Origin: a virus
Reading direction: 5' to 3' (one strand)
Length of the DNA: 64,000 nt
IMG/VR virus record: IMGVR_UViG_3300007535_000003
Location: 1 to 64,000 of that record
Position 1 is the stretch's first letter, and every line of letters starts with the position of its first letter. Made by a program: the position numbers and the translations under genes. The notes beneath the pieces were generated by a model. The model worked only from the letters and a program-made list of their open reading frames with translations. It searched no databases and was not told the origin of the DNA. Shown piece after piece: positions 3,001 to 44,848 of the stretch.

Positions 3001-3581
3001 GGTGAAGAAGATAGACTACTTGGTGATACATAGTATCCTGAATCATCTTTAACACCTTCAGGAGCATCTAATACATTAAAACGCCTTATACCAGAAGTAC
3101 CGTCAAGCCAATATAGGTTTTCAACATTATCAGTTTCAGCCCTCAGTATAGCAGATATATTAGTACTGGTATCCCAGCCAAAACCCTCATAACCAGAATA
3201 GCTATATATAGCGTCATAATCACTATACAGCTCTTTATGAGAACTTACAGTGCTACCATCAAATACTACTTCATATATTGAAGAGTGGTCAGAACCATCT
3301 GCAACTAGAAATAGTATTACTCTGCTACCATTAACAGTATAGCCTATAAGATCGTAGTAATAGGAGCTTTCAACACTATTAAGCCTAATATCTGTATTAG
3401 CTAAAGACAGCGTATTACCTTTTATATTCTCTAGTGCGCCAGTAGAGTTATATTCATCAGCAATGAGCCTTAGATTCTCAGCATGGAGATACATATTAGG
3501 CTTCATGACGCTATAGTCCAAATCTTTATTCATGCCGCCTGAAAAAGTACTGGCGTGCTGTTGTTGTTGTTGTTTAGGCAT
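1..3581 (-). CDS. Tail stabilization/muzzle protein (crAss-like, P22 gp10-like); runs off the left edge
   Basis: ATG at 3581, read as MPKQQQQQHASTFSGGMNKDLDYSVMKPNMYLHAENLRL...GALENIKGN. This N-terminus is typical of crAss-like muzzle proteins, and the gene follows the ring protein. Absent from the ORF track because it is truncated. Confidence 0.75.
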   Translation of the reverse strand, partial: MPKQQQQQHASTFSGGMNKDLDYSVMKPNMYLHAENLRLIADEYNSTGALENIKGNTLSLANTDIRLNSVESSYYYDLIGYTVNGSRVILFLVADGSDHSSIYEVVFDGSTVSSHKELYSDYDAIYSYSGYEGFGWDTSTNISAILRAETDNVENLYWLDGTSGIRRFNVLDAPEGVKDDSGYYVSPSSLSSSPSFPFTDSSIELSSIGNGSLLAGTVQYAYRFVSNSGSQSPISNLTGLYHISKSNEFASNTRTYTGSDVDENCGKAFIMEVTVTDSIVKLYDKIIPYSVHYDSITGTPLINRISQVSMSSGTTSYKFTDTGSSYEGTITLEELLVESSTTTSASSIISKARLLESKDNRLFLADVETTSTEGIDLSGYDSRAYRFTSDQSATIYNSNTTVEATIDGTSPSWPTDTDLDAINSFNYIPYYGTYDGSLGDAGYDNPMNDYDHYKYQKDGDTLGASGPNINISFETKEIVLEDSGDSKKASVSTRVAKYGFKNYASPYYTANFQSYQRDEIYRFSIKFLNNEGHETSPQWICDLRMPHIIEEPIHSTNGSSAFGNILSPVFEVTSLPTGATAYQILRTERTTSDKSVLSQGIVKPTFPNNRGDEAREGDDTGYQAFPARSNSRDLDASYTDSYINYYLLQFISPETVFYKEGGFSLDGDYIECIGFLNSILSDNRGTHILDDGLVISSMYKWYNGITEDISVASIDDSKIIRSVGEPYFSGSDWNTNVTADKHTIGKYDYWSYMMSPNVKYDKIARTVSSMLLRPLYSEHITKQGGTGYAPFNYGGSVDYKSPYIANYKRYNYSTMYGGNTNSVRNNNKYIAITGVQTGTGSTAPYNGDIFINAADLQPITYESFIPEVESRNDRSFAEVDIVPLESSINMELRQGDYATKFSDITSNIKYLNEDEDSDQNLEPLYVYNTVYSKDNDIKKEAVITEEQQSDSTNIFKNRIVASSNKINGEKYDSWLLYPANDYIDVDSSYGDIVSLYKFEDKLYYLQERAIGVVSVNERSLVQDNSGQQLVLGTGTLLSRFDYITTDYGCTNKYSIVNTSTGLYWFDSYTNTIVHMYRDQYGKLKVTSLTKEKAMQPFMNQYDFTSCVSGKDEKRNEILFTLSNGADTKTLVYNERLGLFQSLYSIDATYYINVNRELLSTKDGRNFYIYSTDSAYYGKFYGTTYDSTIKLLVN

Positions 3582-27324: not shown

Positions 27325-30300
27325 TTATCTTAACCGGTTAAAATTATATTTTCTATCTTCAGTGAAAAACCTAGTTTGAAAGAACTTATCAATAGTTTTC
27401 TCACTCCTTTTCTTATCCTTAACATGTACATTATGTAATTCTTTTTTATACAACATTACCATCATTAATGAAATTACTCGGTCAAAGTTGCCCTTATCGT
27501 TATAAGATATTAACTCATCTAACAATGGTAATGAGAATATTTTCTCCAAATTCTTATGGCCTGGTGAATATTCTTCATTAAGCCAATCTCGTATTTCTCG
27601 TTCAGCCCAATCTTTTATACCTTTAGTCATATGAATACCCTTCTTACGTTGTACCTTAGATACTTGCACAATGTCATGTATAATATCAGGCTGATTAGCT
27701 AACATATAATCAACACCCTTATTAGCAAAATAAGCGTACATACCTTTACGCTCATTCTCGTATAAAGCCCTTGCATTATAGTATTTAAGTAGCCTGTAGA
27801 CATTTTCATAATACTCATTAGCCGTATCTGGTCTACCTGTATATTCAGCTACTATTATATCATAGTACTGTTCAAATGACTGAAATCTTTTATATATAAT
27901 AGTGCTCCCTAAAGAAGAAGTACCAGAATCATCATGGTCATAAGGGTCAATACCAGCTATATATAGACCATACGGAGGATCTTCAACAGGATGCTCCCAT
28001 ATAACTATAGCCCCTTCTTTGCTATCATTTTTATCTAAAGGAAACTTCTCTATATCTTTAGCTCCAGATAGCTGGTTCCACCTTAGTCTACCAGCCCCAT
28101 CATACTCAAGACTACCCACCTGTTTATAGTTTTTCAGCTTCTTATCCCCCATTATCCTAGCTTTCTGTGCCTGTAGTTCTTTCTTAGGGAATATATTACC
28201 AGTCAACTGTAAGGTAGCTTCTCTAGGCGTATTTGGGTGTTCCGCAATATACCTATCTACAGAATTCTTATCACCAGAATGCTCTTCTACCTCCTTACGT
28301 TGCCTATTAGATTCTTCTATAGCTTCATCTATTGAGGAATTACCATCCTCATTCATAAAGCCTTGCATATTCATATAGTTAGGTACAAAAAAGCCACATG
28401 CTGTTTCATAAGCACCATCATCCCATACATTCCTTATAGGTAGAACATTATAAGCCCTAGGTTTATAAAACAACTCTTTTAAGCTAGAATAGTCTGCCTC
28501 TTCTGTATTATGCGTAATTACACCATTACCTAAATAAGTATTAGTATTTGAAGCTGTTAAATTATAAACAGGATTAATACCAGTATGTTTAATAGATATA
28601 ACTTTCTCATGCCTTAGTCCATTATATTTTCTTTGGGGTTTTTTGTCTTTATTATAATCCCAAATATTATTTAATTTTTCTTGCTTATTTTTTATAAGTA
28701 AATTAAAATTTTCAACAAACAAAGTTAAACTTCTACAATCACTGATATTAAATTCATGCCAAGCATTGACATCTTTTGGATTATTATCTCTAGGTTGCCT
28801 GGTTCTTAATTTACCATGTATGCCAAATTTTTGTAATATTAGTTGTAACTCTTTTAATATCTCTAAATTATTTTGGCTCAAACTTATTTCAGATAAATAT
28901 TTACCTTTTCTTTTATTATTTACTCTAAAACTTATATACCCATCAGCATCATACAATCCAGCAACAAACTCTGAAATAGATTTTTTATTCCATTTATGTA
29001 CATCTTTTGGCAATCTTTTATCAGATTTAGTTTGTCCAAATATACCATGATATCTAAGAGTATCATTAAAGTTTAATATACCAGCTTCTTTATATATTCT
29101 CTTATCTTTATTTTCCCTCTCTAAATATACAGCATTGGAATAATTATCATCTATATAATCCCAAAGCTCTTTGTCACAATTAGCAAATTTAGGAGTACTA
29201 TTACCATAAGTACCATCCCCTACTAGCATGCCTAATAGTCTAGCGTCTTCTACCTCTTTATCGCCAAATATTGGTAATTTGTCTATAACTGATATTAAAT
29301 CACCTTCAGCTATATTACCAGCTTCTTTCCAGTCATGTCCTATTATTCTTCTATTCTGCCTTTTGTGATATTTATTCCATCCTTTATCTTTAAATATTGG
29401 AGAATAAATAGGATGATCCGTACTGCACTCTATTGTTCTACCAGAATCAGTAGTTAATTTAATAGTTTCTTTTTCAGTATATGGTTGTTGATAAGCTATA
29501 TCTTCTTTACTATAATTACCAGACATTTCATCAAAACCAATTATACCTTCATTTTTAACTAAATCTTCTATATTTATTAATTCACCTTTATTATTAAATA
29601 CTTTGTTCCCAGCTGTTAAACAACCTCCCGTACCAAAAGAAATCATTGTACCAAAAGCCACACCATCCTGTTCTACCGAAGGTTGAGCTATCTGCCACGA
29701 TTGAAGCAAATTTGGAAATTTACCTGATTCTTCCCAGACAATTAGTTTAGCTGCTTTACCTCTAGCTTTTTGAGGATCATTCTTTAGAGTAACACCTATA
29801 ATTTCAGATTTATATCCCTTCTCTATTTTACTGCCTCCCTTAGTAGTATAGAAAGAAGCCCTTCTATGCATATTGGTGTCTATTGCTTGTCTCTTCTTAG
29901 TCCAAGCTGTATTATCATCTATCCAACTCATCATATCCCAAGCCTTGGACAGTACACCATCTTTCGTTAAAAATTCCTTTTCTGAGGCTATAGCATAAGA
30001 TATCGATTCGGGTATAAGGAAGAAATTTCTATTCAACATTGCAGCAACTTTATACGAATAACCTGACCTACGCTTTTTAAGCACAGCCATATGACTACCC
30101 CTATTTTCTGCTTCTTCTACTGCGTCAAAATACTCCTTATCATAGTCCCAGAAATTTGGAAATCCCCTGTCCCTAGTAGGTATAACCTTAGTACCACCAC
30201 TACCATCAGGAACTTCTTTCTCAACTACTTTCATTATGGGGCAATAATTTAAATAAAAATAGTGATAGCCTGTAATACTATCACCATCTTCAGCAGTAAA

Positions 30301-30465
30301 GCCATCGGTACTACGTTTCATTTCTCTGTCCCAATAACGCTTATATTCTGTAGTACCTGGGGGAGCTGCAGTATACATGCTGTTTTCTTCAAAATACTTA
30401 GCAGCTGGCCTAAATTTATCAGTATTTTTAAATTTTCTAACCCTTACTTCGTATGTATCTTCCAT
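27325..30465 (-). CDS. terL: Terminase large subunit containing an intein
   Basis: LKKRRSGYSY Walker A-like, VWEESG Walker B, YIAGIDPYD nuclease, NFDRV. Confidence 0.93.
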   Translation of the reverse strand: MEDTYEVRVRKFKNTDKFRPAAKYFEENSMYTAAPPGTTEYKRYWDREMKRSTDGFTAEDGDSITGYHYFYLNYCPIMKVVEKEVPDGSGGTKVIPTRDRGFPNFWDYDKEYFDAVEEAENRGSHMAVLKKRRSGYSYKVAAMLNRNFFLIPESISYAIASEKEFLTKDGVLSKAWDMMSWIDDNTAWTKKRQAIDTNMHRRASFYTTKGGSKIEKGYKSEIIGVTLKNDPQKARGKAAKLIVWEESGKFPNLLQSWQIAQPSVEQDGVAFGTMISFGTGGCLTAGNKVFNNKGELINIEDLVKNEGIIGFDEMSGNYSKEDIAYQQPYTEKETIKLTTDSGRTIECSTDHPIYSPIFKDKGWNKYHKRQNRRIIGHDWKEAGNIAEGDLISVIDKLPIFGDKEVEDARLLGMLVGDGTYGNSTPKFANCDKELWDYIDDNYSNAVYLERENKDKRIYKEAGILNFNDTLRYHGIFGQTKSDKRLPKDVHKWNKKSISEFVAGLYDADGYISFRVNNKRKGKYLSEISLSQNNLEILKELQLILQKFGIHGKLRTRQPRDNNPKDVNAWHEFNISDCRSLTLFVENFNLLIKNKQEKLNNIWDYNKDKKPQRKYNGLRHEKVISIKHTGINPVYNLTASNTNTYLGNGVITHNTEEADYSSLKELFYKPRAYNVLPIRNVWDDGAYETACGFFVPNYMNMQGFMNEDGNSSIDEAIEESNRQRKEVEEHSGDKNSVDRYIAEHPNTPREATLQLTGNIFPKKELQAQKARIMGDKKLKNYKQVGSLEYDGAGRLRWNQLSGAKDIEKFPLDKNDSKEGAIVIWEHPVEDPPYGLYIAGIDPYDHDDSGTSSLGSTIIYKRFQSFEQYYDIIVAEYTGRPDTANEYYENVYRLLKYYNARALYENERKGMYAYFANKGVDYMLANQPDIIHDIVQVSKVQRKKGIHMTKGIKDWAEREIRDWLNEEYSPGHKNLEKIFSLPLLDELISYNDKGNFDRVISLMMVMLYKKELHNVHVKDKKRSEKTIDKFFQTRFFTEDRKYNFNRLR
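28507..29622 (-). mobile_element. Intein with LAGLIDADG endonuclease (372 aa) in TerL
   Basis: Starts GTGG|CLTAGNKV and ends GVITHN|TEE (Thr +1); CSTDHPI block B; LLGMLVGDG and FVAGLYDADG motifs. Confidence 0.93.
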
Positions 30466-40845: not shown

Positions 40846-40965
40846 GGTCCGTTCGTCTAGTGGTAGGACGCCGAGCTGTTAATACTTTATACATGCACTA
40901 GCTATGTTAGAGTATCAACCATGGTTTGCCCCACGGAAACGGAGGTTCGACTCCTCCACGGACTG
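40846..40965 (+). tRNA. tRNA-like RNA (Glu/Asp-type body) with the anticodon arm extended into a long hairpin
   Basis: Acceptor GGTCCGT/ACGGACT; D-arm GTCTAGTGGTAGGAC; T-arm GGAGG-TTCGACT-CCTCC; about 45-50 extra nt in the anticodon arm. Confidence 0.7.
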
Positions 40966-41369: not shown

Positions 41370-41627
41370 ATGGAAAAACGTTATGCCCTTAACAGGGGAG
41401 ACATCTTAGTCTTACTGTTAAATGGGAAGAAAAAGACATTTAGGGTCTTATCCTCAAAAGATAGCATGGGAAAAGACGCCGACAGTAGTAATAAGAAAGA
41501 GCCTTTGGATCTCAATATAAGTAGCGAGCTATTCAAAGAGATCGAAAAGAAACTGCCTGAAGTATTTTTTAAGAAAATCCGATGGAAATCTAACTCAGTA
41601 AGATTATTAAGCGTTAAAAGGAGCTAA
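41370..41627 (+). CDS. Hypothetical protein
   Basis: ORF in operon. Confidence 0.55.
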   Translation: MEKRYALNRGDILVLLLNGKKKTFRVLSSKDSMGKDADSSNKKEPLDLNISSELFKEIEKKLPEVFFKKIRWKSNSVRLLSVKRS

Positions 41628-41630
41628 GAC

Positions 41631-42074
41631 ATGTGGAAATCTAACTCAAAGCAAAGCAAAGACAAAATAAGTAAGGGCAGTTTAGTAATTATTGACATGC
41701 CCGACTTTATTGGAGAATATGTACCTTCAATAAGTAAGGTAGCGTGTAGCTACAAAGAAAAGATGCTACATTTCTCTAATGTTAGCAATGCTTTTGGTAG
41801 CTTATTTGGTGAAGAACACCATTTAATAGAAGTACCAAGAGCAGTCATACTCTATAACAAGACACATTTTCTTAAGAGTGTATTAGAGCTATCTGAAGCA
41901 TATAAAGAAGATAGCTTAGATTCTTTATTCTTTTACGGTCGTAAAATAGTACTACCAGTCCATGAGGGATACTTAATGCCGGTAAGTAAAATAAAGGATC
42001 CACACAAAAGAGGACTATGTTATAGAGAATGGGAAATGTTAAAGACTAAGGGATATAGTAACCTTATAACCTAA
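41631..42074 (+). CDS. Hypothetical protein
   Basis: ORF in operon. Confidence 0.55.
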   Translation: MWKSNSKQSKDKISKGSLVIIDMPDFIGEYVPSISKVACSYKEKMLHFSNVSNAFGSLFGEEHHLIEVPRAVILYNKTHFLKSVLELSEAYKEDSLDSLFFYGRKIVLPVHEGYLMPVSKIKDPHKRGLCYREWEMLKTKGYSNLIT

Positions 42075-42135
42075 CTTAACTAACAAACGATTTACTTACG
42101 CTGCTAGCTAGGGCTTTAGCGGACTCGGGTTCGAT

Positions 42136-42756
42136 CAAAAGGTCGAAGTTAAACTGGGTGAATTCAGGGAAACCTAAGTCACAATGATAAGGCAACCCTG
42201 AGCCAAGCCCTTAAGAGGGAAGGTGCAGAGACTACCTGAATACAGGCTAGAGCGCCCAGCACTTAAAAGTGAAGAGATAGTCCGATACTCCTGAGAAATT
42301 AGGAGAAGAAGCGAGATGTAAATTCTTGACGTTTTGATAAGGTTTCTTTTGTATATTTACCATTACGAGGTGTTATACTCTTCAATTCGTTAAGTATCAT
42401 ATCTATACGTCTACGCTTCTTGGGATGTCTGGAATTTATGTAAGATAGTACGTTTATACATTTAGGTAAATAAGTATACCTCAGCTCATAATTAGTAAAA
42501 TCACCTGATTTTTTAGTACAAATGAATCCATTATGACCTGTTTCAAGTTTAATAAATTTTTCTATTTCCACAAGTAGGTCATATTCGTTATTACTAAAAG
42601 AAATAACAGGTGATCTTTCGCAATTCTTATGTAAACGTAAAAATGTTATCGTGCCGTCAGCATCAAAGAAACCTGTAATATATTCCCAACCCATATTTTT
42701 ATTGAATATACGGACGCAGGTTTGAAATGTTACTGTTCCAGATGTTTTAACTATTG
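42136..42756 (+). mobile_element. Group I intron in the tmRNA T-loop
   Basis: P1 TTCGAT|C-AAAA-GGTCGAA with U:G at the splice site; P3 CTGGGTG/CGCCCAG; P4 TTCAGGG/CCCTGAG; GCAGAGACT and AGATAGTC (P7); P9 CTCCT/AGGAG; terminal G at 42756. Confidence 0.9.
42299..42694 (-). CDS. Single-motif LAGLIDADG homing endonuclease, antisense inside the intron
   Basis: WEYITGFFDADGTI; TPRNGKYT; lies in the intron 3' (P9) region. Confidence 0.88.
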   Translation of the reverse strand: MGWEYITGFFDADGTITFLRLHKNCERSPVISFSNNEYDLLVEIEKFIKLETGHNGFICTKKSGDFTNYELRYTYLPKCINVLSYINSRHPKKRRRIDMILNELKSITPRNGKYTKETLSKRQEFTSRFFS

Positions 42757-42789
42757 TCCCGAAGGCTCCACTTATCTAAACACTGTATT

Positions 42790-42930
42790 ATGAAAGCATT
42801 AAAACTACCACGGAAGGAGAAAAAGAGACGTAAGAAGGAGATACAAAAGTATCTAAGAAATGTTCTTAAGGTAGAAGCTAATACTAAAAACATCCGATTA
42901 TCGGAAATAGGATACAGGCTAGTAAAATAG
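42790..42930 (+). CDS. 46-aa basic peptide in the tmRNA intervening segment
   Basis: MKALKLPRKEKKRRKKEIQKYLRNVLKVEANTKNIRLSEIGYRLVK. Confidence 0.45.
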   Translation: MKALKLPRKEKKRRKKEIQKYLRNVLKVEANTKNIRLSEIGYRLVK

Positions 42931-43168
42931 CCCGTTGCCAATGATAGCAGTAGGGCAGGTGAGGAGAAAATATTATAATTTCACGGAGGTTGGTAACTCA
43001 GGTAGCCCCTGGGGTGTAACCTGCCCTTTGTTTTCAACGTTAAAAATATGGGGCCTAATTGGTTTTGACGTTATGGTACCCAGTTAGCACGAAAGGTGTA
43101 AGTAATTTTTAAATGGCGAATCTGAAATGATGCAATTGCTTAGAGCAGCTGCTTAATCGGTGAGTCTT

Positions 43169-43195
43169 GGGGGACATTAATAGTCCCCCTTTTTC
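43169..43195 (+). terminator. Terminator after the tmRNA coding piece
   Basis: GGGGGAC-ATTAATA-GTCCCCC-TTTTT. Confidence 0.8.
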
Positions 43196-43219
43196 TTTAA
43201 CCATTAAAACTAACCAAAC

Positions 43220-43768
43220 ATGGATAACTTATTTAGGAAGACACTACTCCAAGATCTTAAAGATCAATATTTGGAGTTACGGAAAGACTTCTTTAGGGCT
43301 AAAAAAAGAGGCAACAAAAGGGAAGCAAATTCCCTGCGAGAACAGCTTTCAACACTTTCCGCCTTAATCGGAGAAATTGAGAATATGGAAAAGAAGAAAG
43401 CATCATCCAGCTTTGAAGGAGACAAAAAGTACTTAAGGAAATACTTATTTGATACACTAACTGCTTCTTTGACTGAATCCAAAGATAGTCGTAAAGGTAG
43501 ACTTTTCAGAGATAAGTGTATCAACGAAGTTGCAACTATAACGAAAGCTTCTCATAAGCACTTGTTTGAAGAAGATGATAAGTTAAGTCCAGAAGAGGCG
43601 TATAATATCATTAATACGCTTAGTAAGTTTGGTATGAAGGAATTCAGGGAAAGAATCAGTGAAGCAAGAAAAGACGACAGGGGTAGAGACAGAATTGTCA
43701 AGTTTGTCTTTTCAAATTCACCTGAAGATCGAAATAAAATCGATATGGTGATTAAGAAAGTTCTATAA
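43220..43768 (+). CDS. Hypothetical protein
   Basis: 182-aa ORF. Confidence 0.65.
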   Translation: MDNLFRKTLLQDLKDQYLELRKDFFRAKKRGNKREANSLREQLSTLSALIGEIENMEKKKASSSFEGDKKYLRKYLFDTLTASLTESKDSRKGRLFRDKCINEVATITKASHKHLFEEDDKLSPEEAYNIINTLSKFGMKEFRERISEARKDDRGRDRIVKFVFSNSPEDRNKIDMVIKKVL

Positions 43769-43789
43769 ACCCTGAAAAAACCGATTAAA

Positions 43790-44848
43790 ATGAACAAATA
43801 CAATGCTTCTGCATCGGAATTATTTGATGCAGCCGAATACTTTTACAAAATGGCTGTCCGTTTTGAAGACAGGTATTGGAATCATGGCAACAACCAAAGT
43901 GATATGAGTGCCATGCATATGTACAAACTGAAAGCTGCTGAAGCTGAAAGCTACGCTGAATTGCTTATTCAAGAGGGGTTAAGCAATACCCTAGGATTTG
44001 GTCCTGAATGGATTAAAAAGAATTTTGTAGCTCTTAATCCAGCTAATATTAAAAGTGAGGTAAGTAAAGCTAAAGAAGCTGGTAAAAGTGAAATCCCTAA
44101 TGCTGAAATAGTTAATGATGAAGCTGAATTCATTAGCAAAAAAGTAGGTATGAAATTACGGGAAGAAGAAGCAGCTGTACTTAGCAAAAAAAGGCAAATA
44201 CGTGAAAGTGAACCTCCATTTGTAACTAGCTTACGTTCTGAAATTATAGAACTACTTGAAAAAGGTCTAAGGGGCGAATTGGTTACATTATTAACTAAGT
44301 TCCATTTTAGGGATGTTGAATATCCTGCAGAAAGAGCTTACAGGTTTATCAACTTAGTTAAAGAGCAATTCAATATATTAGAACCCTCAAGTTCTTTAAA
44401 AGAAGCTAAAACAGCCAGAAGGGTAGCTGAACTAAAAACTCAGCTGCTTAATAAAAAGAGAAGAGAATTCAGGAAAAAGTACACTAAAAAGCATGGTAAA
44501 TTGCCTAAGCCCGAATTACTCAATGCTATACAACTAAGCGATCAGGAAATAGCTCCTTTAGTTGAAAAAGCTAATAAATGGGGCACAGAAAAGATACCTG
44601 TAAATACCTATGTTTATGCTAGATACACGGTACATAATTGTAATGGTGTAGATGTAGAAGAGGGCTATGCCAAAAGACATAAGAATAAGCCTAATGAGCT
44701 ATGGCATAGCAATAGGTTTGTATGCTTCTTAAGTGATGTAGAGAAGTGGAGACCTATCTACGATATCATTCACAACAAAGAAAGGGAGATGAAGTGGTAT
44801 TTCAATAACAACCCTGTATCAGGCAAATATCAAAGAAATAAAGTTTAA
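43790..44848 (+). CDS. Hypothetical protein
   Basis: 352-aa ORF. Confidence 0.7.
   Translation: MNKYNASASELFDAAEYFYKMAVRFEDRYWNHGNNQSDMSAMHMYKLKAAEAESYAELLIQEGLSNTLGFGPEWIKKNFVALNPANIKSEVSKAKEAGKSEIPNAEIVNDEAEFISKKVGMKLREEEAAVLSKKRQIRESEPPFVTSLRSEIIELLEKGLRGELVTLLTKFHFRDVEYPAERAYRFINLVKEQFNILEPSSSLKEAKTARRVAELKTQLLNKKRREFRKKYTKKHGKLPKPELLNAIQLSDQEIAPLVEKANKWGTEKIPVNTYVYARYTVHNCNGVDVEEGYAKRHKNKPNELWHSNRFVCFLSDVEKWRPIYDIIHNKEREMKWYFNNNPVSGKYQRNKV

Follow-up and report, generated by a model that had tools for sequence, protein, structure and literature searches.

Genes for transfer-messenger RNA (tmRNA) in the intron form, whose T-psi-C loop holds a group I intron, were reportedly described by Williams in 2002. 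A tmRNA can also be made of two pieces, as in Caulobacter (cited in PMC9004378 and PMC11915505) and in the marine phage Melnitz, whose ssrA gene is of the two-piece kind; 53 two-piece calls were obtained with ARAGORN among 402 phage tmRNAs (PMC9004378). The largest catalogue of tmRNA sequences (PMC11915505) holds standard, intron and permuted forms, with 79 phage sequences and 883 intron-form sequences in which position 7 of the T-loop is the main intron site; a class which is at the same time permuted and interrupted by an intron figures neither in its text nor in its phylum table. Our search of the literature found no paper on a permuted tmRNA with an intron, nor on the tmRNAs of crAss-like phages as such. 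Here we analyse a locus of a viral genome where the two forms come together. The stretch of DNA that was analysed, hereafter the window, comprises 64,000 nucleotides (positions 1 to 64,000 of the IMG/VR virus record IMGVR_UViG_3300007535_000003), and the locus lies on its plus strand between 42092 and 43198. Judged on its sequence, the locus is confirmed as a tmRNA (ssrA) gene whose halves stand in swapped order, which is devoid of pseudoknots and whose T-loop is split by a group I intron.

Anatomy of the permuted gene

The coordinates of the features are collected in Table 1. The 3' tRNA-like half (the acceptor piece, 42092-42770) precedes the 5' half, which starts at 43050 on the same strand, as had been read in an earlier note on this DNA; the start given there, 42091, was about right, the first paired base being 42092. 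The 5' half, GGGGCCTAATTGGTTTTGAC, contains the 5' strand of the acceptor stem, GGGGCCT, and the D-loop analogue AATTGGTTTTGAC. The same note had proposed an acceptor stem of 7 bp with the pair G3:U70, which is the alanine identity pair, and a discriminator A. Indeed, the seven pairs are all formed, G43052:U42767 standing for G3:U70, and the discriminator is A42770; if the T-stem is added, all 12 pairs are formed in the window's construct. The two pieces pair further through three helices, namely CGTTA with TAGCG (P2a), CCC-AGTTAGC with GCTAGCT-A-GGG (P2b) and GTGTAAGTAA with TTACTTACGC (P2c).

The tag reading frame, which encodes (A)GESEMMQLLRAAA, and the terminator behind it are present as first described, while the resume codon has to be corrected to the GGC at 43115, which is preceded by TTTTTAAAT and lies 65 nt from the 5' end. 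There are 9 nt from the P2 helix to the resume codon and 12 nt from the stop codon to the terminator. Hence there is no room for the first pseudoknot (pk1) nor for pk2-pk4, and the absence of pk2-pk4 had been rightly noticed. The mini-hairpin capped by GAAA which had been drawn at the site of pk1 did not survive: it is not predicted when the two pieces are folded together, and ACGAAAG (43089-43095) is better read as a bulge. The bases which follow A42770 are CTT; this means that CCA is not encoded, as had been said before.

The two pieces are separated by a spacer of 279 nt, which is presumed to be removed during maturation because of the analogy with the two-piece tmRNA of Caulobacter. This spacer holds a long hairpin (GGGCAGGT, from 42953, facing ACCTGCCC, up to 43026; z = -2.4 for the fold of the spacer). 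A search of Rfam over 42700-43300, with E values up to 10, returned nothing relevant, one match to a snoRNA (E 4.2) being at the level of chance. We also noticed within the spacer (42790-42930, plus strand) a putative open reading frame (ORF) of 46 codons, very basic (MKALKLPRKEKKRRKKE..), with a faint match to the Pfam entry DUF6702 (E 0.0055).

Table 1. Coordinates, in the window, of the parts of the permuted tmRNA gene, of its intron and of the nuclease gene
Feature	Position	Strand	Evidence or location
Acceptor piece exon 1 (3' tRNA-like half)	42092-42135	+	Sequence, cofold, ARAGORN after in-silico splicing, family alignment
P2c 3' strand TTACTTACGC	42092-42101	+	Exon 1
P2b 3' strand GCTAGCT-A-GGG	42103-42113	+	Exon 1
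P2a 3' strand TAGCG	42117-42121	+	Exon 1
GGAC	42121-42124	+	Exon 1
T-stem 5' strand TCGGG	42125-42129	+	Exon 1
T-loop nt 1-6, TTCGAT	42130-42135	+	End of exon 1
Group I intron, 621 nt, T-loop position 7	42136-42756	+	Rfam RF00028, 97.3 bits; intron-less allele of run X5
Intron P1: TTCGAT(C) 42130-42136 / (G)GTCGAA 42141-42147	42130-42147	+	Hairpin TTCGATC(AAAA)GGTCGAA
Intron P3-P9 core	42151-42305	+	RF00028 alignment
Putative LAGLIDADG-type homing endonuclease gene, 131 aa	42299-42694	-	Motif GFFDADG; Pfam; homologues
Intron 3' tail, ending with omega-G 42756	42695-42756	+	Sequence
Acceptor piece exon 2	42757-42770	+	Sequence, X5 allele, cofold, ARAGORN
T-loop nt 7, T	42757	+	Exon 2
T-stem 3' strand CCCGA	42758-42762	+	Exon 2
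Acceptor 3' strand AGGCTCC	42763-42769	+	Exon 2
Discriminator A	42770	+	Exon 2
Intervening spacer, 279 nt	42771-43049	+	Between acceptor piece and 5' half
5' tRNA-like half GGGGCCT..TGGTTTTGAC	43050-43069	+	ARAGORN 5' domain; motif common to Bacteroidota tmRNAs
P2 5' strands CGTTA, CCC-AGTTAGC, GTGTAAGTAA; internal loops TGGTA, ACGAAAG	43069-43105	+	Cofold
Tag reading frame GGC..GCT TAA (TAA 43154-43156)	43115-43156	+	ARAGORN resume site and tag
Intrinsic terminator GGGGGAC..GTCCCCC (43169-43189), then T run	43169-43198	+	Sequence scan; layout family-like

Recognition of the gene after splicing in silico

ARAGORN, run with its default settings, makes no call on the merely spliced sequence, in which the spacer keeps its full length of 279 nt. 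After removal of the intron and shortening of the spacer from 279 to 259 nt or fewer (a trim of at least 20 nt), the program calls a permuted tmRNA whose 3' domain, 5' domain and tag GESEMMQLLRAAA are exactly those of the first reading; when the intron is retained, there is no call. The failure on the spliced sequence is thus explained by a limit on the length of spacer in the search window of the program, and the check suggested by the earlier note, removal of the intron followed by ARAGORN, is positive once this limit is bypassed.

We cofolded the coding piece (43050-43117) and the spliced acceptor piece with RNAcofold. The structure of minimum free energy consists of the acceptor stem, P2a, P2b, P2c and the T-arm, that is, of the helices which had been proposed between the two pieces. 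It has an energy of -50.2 kcal/mol (z = -4.1 when compared with versions in which the 5' part of the acceptor piece is shuffled), and the segment ACGAAAG appears in it as a bulge or internal loop of 6-7 nt in one nearly continuous P2 helix.

A profile was built from 12 related phage genes (the family described below), the window being left out, with 200 shuffles as control. The spliced construct of the window obtains 48.0 bits with this profile, the shuffles 2.2 bits at most, and a construct with intron sequence in place of the 3' exon 14.7 bits. The spliced construct aligns with the 12 family genes through the whole tRNA-like domain. The pairs of the acceptor stem and of the T-stem are formed in all 13 sequences, with several types of pairs, and the CCU/AGG of the window is a combination of its own. 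The distal part of P2 cannot be reliably aligned across the family; when members are cofolded singly, several of them form this long P2 as well.

The Rfam model of permuted tmRNAs, RF04321 (gathering threshold 47 bits), has no match on the native sequence, as expected with an intron of 621 nt in the T-loop. The models RF01849, RF01850 and RF01851, which describe particular bacterial lineages, have no match in the window either.

The intron and its nuclease gene

At the 5' splice site U42135 forms a wobble pair with G42142, and the last nucleotide of the intron is an omega-G (42756), in keeping with the rules of group I splice sites. The alignment with RF00028 is sound from about 42151 (P3) to 42305 (P9); over its first ~140 bases, which lie upstream of 42136, it fits badly and wrongly places P1 and P2 in the upstream ORF. 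The intron has no P2 hairpin, and blastn matches it to group I introns of phages. Splicing would restore the canonical T-loop TTCGATT, the predicted junction of the ligated exons being ..GGGTTCGAT/TCCCGA.. (the slash marks the junction).

A natural allele without the intron exists. In the soil run X5, a contig of 410 nt which is ~90% identical to 42067-42135 runs straight on into ACCCGAAGGCTCCAC.., so that 42135 is joined directly to ..CCCGAAGGCTCCAC, exactly at the predicted splice sites. The bounds of the intron are therefore independently supported. This variant carries two changes in paired bases, 42099 C>T and 42104 C>T; in each case a C-G pair becomes U.G and the pairing is kept. It has also a change at 42102, which is an unpaired base. 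The intron-bearing form was found without differences in the runs X2 and X3.

The nuclease gene lies after P9 on the strand opposite to that of the intron, and its stop codon overlaps the 3' strand of P9. The score of its ORF with the Pfam entry LAGLIDADG_1 (PF00961) is 21.7 bits (E = 4e-4), just below the cut-off of 23.1; the homologues have an equal length and 55-73% identity, and two of them carry PF00961. Such homologues are found in 28 viral loci of IMG/VR, for the most part on the strand opposite to a group I intron (as recognised by Rfam) and beside a tmRNA of standard form. A test of the gene order in these loci gave at least 14 phage tmRNAs of standard order with an intron in the T-loop, the window being the only permuted one of the set. 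These introns stand at loop position 3 (TT/C..AATG/CGAYT) or 8 (locus L368) and that of the window at position 7, the junctions having been read by eye; each cut follows a U which is able to wobble with a G of the guide sequence.

A permuted tmRNA, unannotated, with a group I intron in its T-loop (RF00028, 75 bits) is also present in the RefSeq genome cr4_1 (NC_055893.1, L396, locus 1580-2620). Its layout is ..GGAC-ACGGG-TTCGACT, intron, CCCGT-ATGCTCC-A, and it is 101 nt from the start of the acceptor 3' strand to that of GGGGCAT... The intron holds, on the opposite strand, an ORF whose annotation reads hypothetical protein, and the coding piece is the only part of the gene that matches L073, a member of the family described below. 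The intron cores of the window, of the standard-order tmRNA L368 and of the permuted cr4_1 align well. Since homologous cores and nucleases occur in tmRNA genes of standard order and in permuted ones, the intron and its nuclease appear to make up a single mobile family which targets the conserved T-loop of phage tmRNAs whatever the order of the gene.

Two further loci may be recorded here. The RefSeq genome cr56_1 (NC_055890.1, L398, locus 1850-2610) holds an unannotated permuted tmRNA with a spacer of 609 nt, in which lies an antisense gene annotated as endonuclease; its T-loop looks non-canonical (TATCGTA). A related soil crAss-like genome (G001:C1:10041-10212, L199) has a group I intron-like stretch which resembles the intron core of the window, without a tmRNA.

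A family of short permuted phage tmRNAs

A scan of IMG/VR for the pattern GGGG..TGGTTTTGAC gave at least 117 loci among the matches listed, and ARAGORN placed permuted tmRNAs in at least 16 of these. At least 12 IMG/VR contigs share the permuted plan of the window. The 12 family genes match RF04321 (tmRNA_permuted), a generic model of the tRNA-like domain, at 50-73 bits and none of the alpha, beta and cyano models, for which L079 (true beta type) and L038 (true cyano type) served as positive controls. Most members have 58-66 nt from the 5' end to the resume codon, which in the family is GGC, GAC or GCA after ..TAAAC or ..TAACT. The tags are typically ..APLRAVA, ..FKAAA or ..MKAAA, the stop is directly followed by the terminator, most of the genes do not encode CCA, and the spacers measure 4-241 nt.

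One member, L073, matches the RefSeq annotations "transfer-messenger RNA, SsrA" of the crAss-like genomes cr60_1, cr114_1, cr125_1, cr52_1, cr115_1 and cr10_1, and the annotated tmRNA of cr114_1 is matched by RF04321. These annotations mean that the permuted, pseudoknot-free tmRNA of crAss phages was already in the databases. The earlier note had imagined an independent permutation in a phage of Bacteroidota. The second half of this proposal agrees with a Crassvirales phage and a tRNA-like domain of Bacteroidota type (see below); independence would hold at best for the phage family and not for this phage, in view of the IMG/VR contigs and of the RefSeq crAss-like phages.

The exact or degenerate pattern of the 5' half of the window has no match in IMG/VR, and the pattern of the spliced T-arm none in IMG/VR and the JGI metagenomes. 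In metagenomes, GGGGCCT..GGTTTTGAC is found at 119 loci, and ARAGORN recognises a tmRNA at the pattern in one of them (L261), a gene of standard order, unlike the permuted one of the window. The neighbouring proteins, used as search queries, brought no relatives. The locus L277 was rejected as a relative: it has a common stretch of 18 nt but belongs to a bacterial intergenic region without a T-arm.

Some side observations were made on these contigs. A motif of ~25 nt, GTTAACCCGTCAC(G/T)TTAGTACGGT, recurs in the spacers of two permuted phage tmRNAs which are otherwise dissimilar, L040 and L099; it may be a small structured element. Three viral contigs (L091 at 3070-3130, L016 from 4406 and L061 from 1298) contain very short tRNA-like look-alikes of tmRNAs, in standard order and without a tag frame, made of a 5' domain, a short hairpin, a T-arm and ..CTCC; they resemble the form without coding sequence reported for mycobacteriophage DS6A. 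Finally, in viral contigs, among them gut crAss-like ones (L073, L093, L396-L398, L372), tmRNA genes have in their vicinity, a few kb away at most, RAGATH-9, RAGATH-20, Hatchet ribozymes (several) and a GOLLD RNA.

The phage and its host

The record from which the window is taken has 97,237 bp, of which the window makes up the first 64 kb, and CheckV estimates the completeness of the record at 94%. Its large ORFs match the PHROG families of the major head protein, the portal and the large terminase; the major capsid protein (MCP, the head protein) shares 60-63% identity with those of RefSeq crAss-like phages, and DNA of the phage is found in soil metagenome runs of several studies. Hence, we assigned the phage to the Crassvirales, as a soil member. 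The known hosts of the crAss-like relatives by MCP are Bacteroides, Flavobacterium, Cellulophaga and Azobacteroides, and the host is presumably a bacterium of the Bacteroidota.

The pattern GGGG..TGGTTTTGAC was also scanned in one genome per species, which gave at least 120 loci among the matches listed. In about 30 of the 120 listed loci it starts a standard tmRNA called by ARAGORN, and those of these tmRNAs that come from named genomes, 17 of the 31 called among the matches listed, are all from Bacteroidota (with tags such as GENNYALAA); the attribution of the tRNA-like domain of the phage tmRNA to the Bacteroidota type appears supported. The phage genome contains no SmpB gene, so that host factors are needed: charging, delivery, 5' cutting and addition of CCA would presumably all rest on the host.

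Two other elements of the window drew our attention. The large terminase ORF (27325-30465, minus strand) is 1045 aa long and its match to terminases covers residues 650-1030; residues ~326-551 match primase-like or helicase-like PHROGs, which may be due to a fusion or to an inserted element. About 1.1 kb upstream of the tmRNA, 40846-40965 (plus strand) matches the tRNA model of Rfam with 44.6 bits and an insertion of 51 nt in the region of the anticodon loop; ARAGORN makes no call there, and the element may be a tRNA with an intron or one that is unusual in some other way.

Objections and alternative explanations

Several observations weigh against a permuted tmRNA gene in working order. On the native sequence ARAGORN (default) makes no call and Rfam gives no match to a tmRNA, RF00023 having none across the whole phage genome. 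A scan for sigma-70 consensus promoters finds sites no more frequent than in shuffles, and no box of the Bacteroidota type TAnnTTTG was seen by eye. P2b and P2c rest on thermodynamics and on the two G.U-preserving changes of X5, no close two-piece relative having been recovered. The sequencing runs which contain the stretch are DNA runs, with no RNA run among them. The tag ends with AAA and not with the host-like LAA. The spacer is longer than that of any family member seen (279 nt against 4-241 nt). Finally, no tmRNA is found in four near-complete related phages (MCP ~72% identical), and 41600-43800 has no blast match in these four genomes; the tmRNA gene is therefore accessory, and dispensable for the group.

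The last four of these points would suit a tmRNA gene which is decaying or inactive, invaded by the intron and its nuclease and kept only as the seat of such a selfish element. We regard this as improbable: all the stems are intact, the acceptor stem with 7 pairs out of 7, and the T-loop is canonical after splicing; the core of the intron, with 97 bits, complies with the rules for splice sites; the nuclease ORF is unbroken and of conserved length; and the tag frame, the resume context and the terminator are intact and similar to those of the family.

A working tmRNA-like RNA could also have a role other than quality control, either as a decoy for SmpB or as a tagger which, by adding AAA or AVA, alters the fate of the tagged proteins to the benefit of the phage. 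Such a role would agree with the form of mycobacteriophage DS6A, tRNA-like and without coding sequence, which reportedly inhibits the host tmRNA (PMC11915505), with family tags that end with AVA, AAA or LVA and not with the ALAA of the host, and with a phage devoid of SmpB. The tag frame, the resume context and the stop are however conserved across the family, as expected of real trans-translation, and we give this explanation even less weight than decay.

On the native sequence, ARAGORN reports another 3' tRNA-like half, nearer to the 5' half, at 42976-43011 if its threshold is lowered to 80% (-ps80), in which case the upstream T-arm split by the intron would be unrelated. This is hardly credible: the element has neither a canonical T-loop nor G3:U70, its cofold (-28.4 kcal/mol) has no tRNA-like shape, its 13.4 bits with the family profile all come from the 5' half, and at the default threshold ARAGORN picks the upstream element instead. 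As for a chance juxtaposition of tRNA-like fragments beside the intron of another gene, which the failure of the standard tools on the native sequence could suggest, it is practically refuted by the X5 allele, the cofold, the ARAGORN call after splicing and the family profile, the more so as the upstream ORF ends at 42074 and there is no other exon context.

A permuted tmRNA gene split by an intron, and intact by every criterion of sequence, is thus very probably what the locus contains.

Proposed mode of action

What the sequences show are the anatomy of the gene, its place in the family, the bounds of the intron and an allele that lacks it. By analogy with the described systems we infer a course which goes from transcription, splicing, cleavage and two-piece maturation to charging, tagging and rescue. 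Transcription would yield one precursor, which would start upstream of 42092 and stop at the terminator (~43198). The intron (42136-42756) would splice itself out and restore the T-loop; the RNase P of the host would cleave 5' of G43050, while a 3' nuclease and the CCA-adding enzyme of the host would finish the end after A42770, the spacer of 279 nt being discarded. The product would consist of an acceptor piece of ~60 nt and a coding piece of ~150 nt held together by the 7-bp acceptor stem and ~25 bp of P2, with no pseudoknot. The alanyl-tRNA synthetase of the host would charge this RNA by virtue of G3:U70. With SmpB and EF-Tu of the host, the RNA would enter stalled ribosomes, and translation would resume at the GGC of 43115, adding AGESEMMQLLRAAA. 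That the tmRNA acts in this way, in ribosome rescue during infection, seems likely to us, with less assurance than the nature of the gene. Targeting of the tagged proteins to proteases is uncertain, because the tag ends with AAA and not with the host-like LAA. The intron and its nuclease would for their part be members of a family of selfish elements homing into the conserved T-loop of phage tmRNAs of any gene order.

A bolder proposal can be made, which we consider rather doubtful, although less so than any of the alternatives weighed above. The Crassvirales may maintain a stripped-down trans-translation RNA, in two pieces, of ~210 nt and free of pseudoknots, whose non-host tag (..AAA or ..AVA as against ..ALAA) would serve the phage and not quality control, and whose T-loop would be a hot spot for a family of introns with their nucleases, spreading from one phage to another in genes of either order. 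If this were true, the RNA could free the ribosomes from mRNAs cut by the RNases of abortive infection or by phage nucleases, and the tagged products would be spared by the host proteases.

Significance and comparison with known systems

ARAGORN and Rfam miss the native form of a gene which is both permuted and interrupted by an intron, and the unannotated tmRNA of cr4_1 in RefSeq falls into the same blind spot. Standard annotation misses this form of gene, and consequently phage tmRNAs are under-counted. Natural tmRNAs of about half the usual size, without pk1-pk4, bear on the minimal needs of trans-translation. The assembly of the tRNA-like domain would depend on a ribozyme step, which makes a testable link between the splicing of an intron and ribosome rescue in infection. 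One family of introns and nucleases at the positions 3, 7 and 8 of the loop, in standard-order and in permuted phage tmRNAs, offers a compact system for the drift of homing sites.

The finding is not categorically new: it combines known forms, in a phage and with an antisense nuclease. The permuted and the intron forms are each known, and it is their combination which looks uncatalogued. The two-piece tmRNAs of Alphaproteobacteria, Betaproteobacteria and Cyanobacteria (RF01849, RF01850 and RF01851) and that of Melnitz are, like the gene of the window, circularly permuted and presumed to give two base-paired pieces; the gene of the window differs from all of them by its tRNA-like domain of Bacteroidota type and by its lack of pseudoknots. 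With the intron-form tmRNAs of the catalogue (PMC11915505) it shares position 7 of the T-loop, the U.G pair at -1, the omega-G and the place of the LAGLIDADG-type gene after P9, which is one of the two catalogued nuclease sites. The catalogued cases are however of standard order and nearly all bacterial, whereas the gene of the window is permuted and its nuclease is antisense.

There is a close likeness in plan with the permuted tmRNAs of crAss-like phages (RefSeq; RF04321). The order of acceptor piece, spacer and coding piece is the same; the 5' domain GGGG..TGGTTTTGAC is of Bacteroidota type in both, and the GGAC and the T-arm are present in both; about 60 nt lead to the resume codon, without pk1, and GGC stands after a context like TAAAC or TAACT; the tags are short and end with small residues, with a terminator directly after. 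The window has no DNA similarity with these genes outside the tRNA-like domain, and it differs from them by its longer spacer (279 nt), by its source, which is soil and not gut, and by the intron in its T-loop, on account of which it is missed by RF04321 and ARAGORN. With cr4_1, finally, the window has in common a permuted gene and, in its T-loop, a group I intron; the two introns are homologous and each has an ORF on the opposite strand. In cr4_1 the intron occupies position 8 of the loop and includes a P2 hairpin, the body of the gene is of the gut lineage GNTSY.., and the spacer measures ~90 nt.

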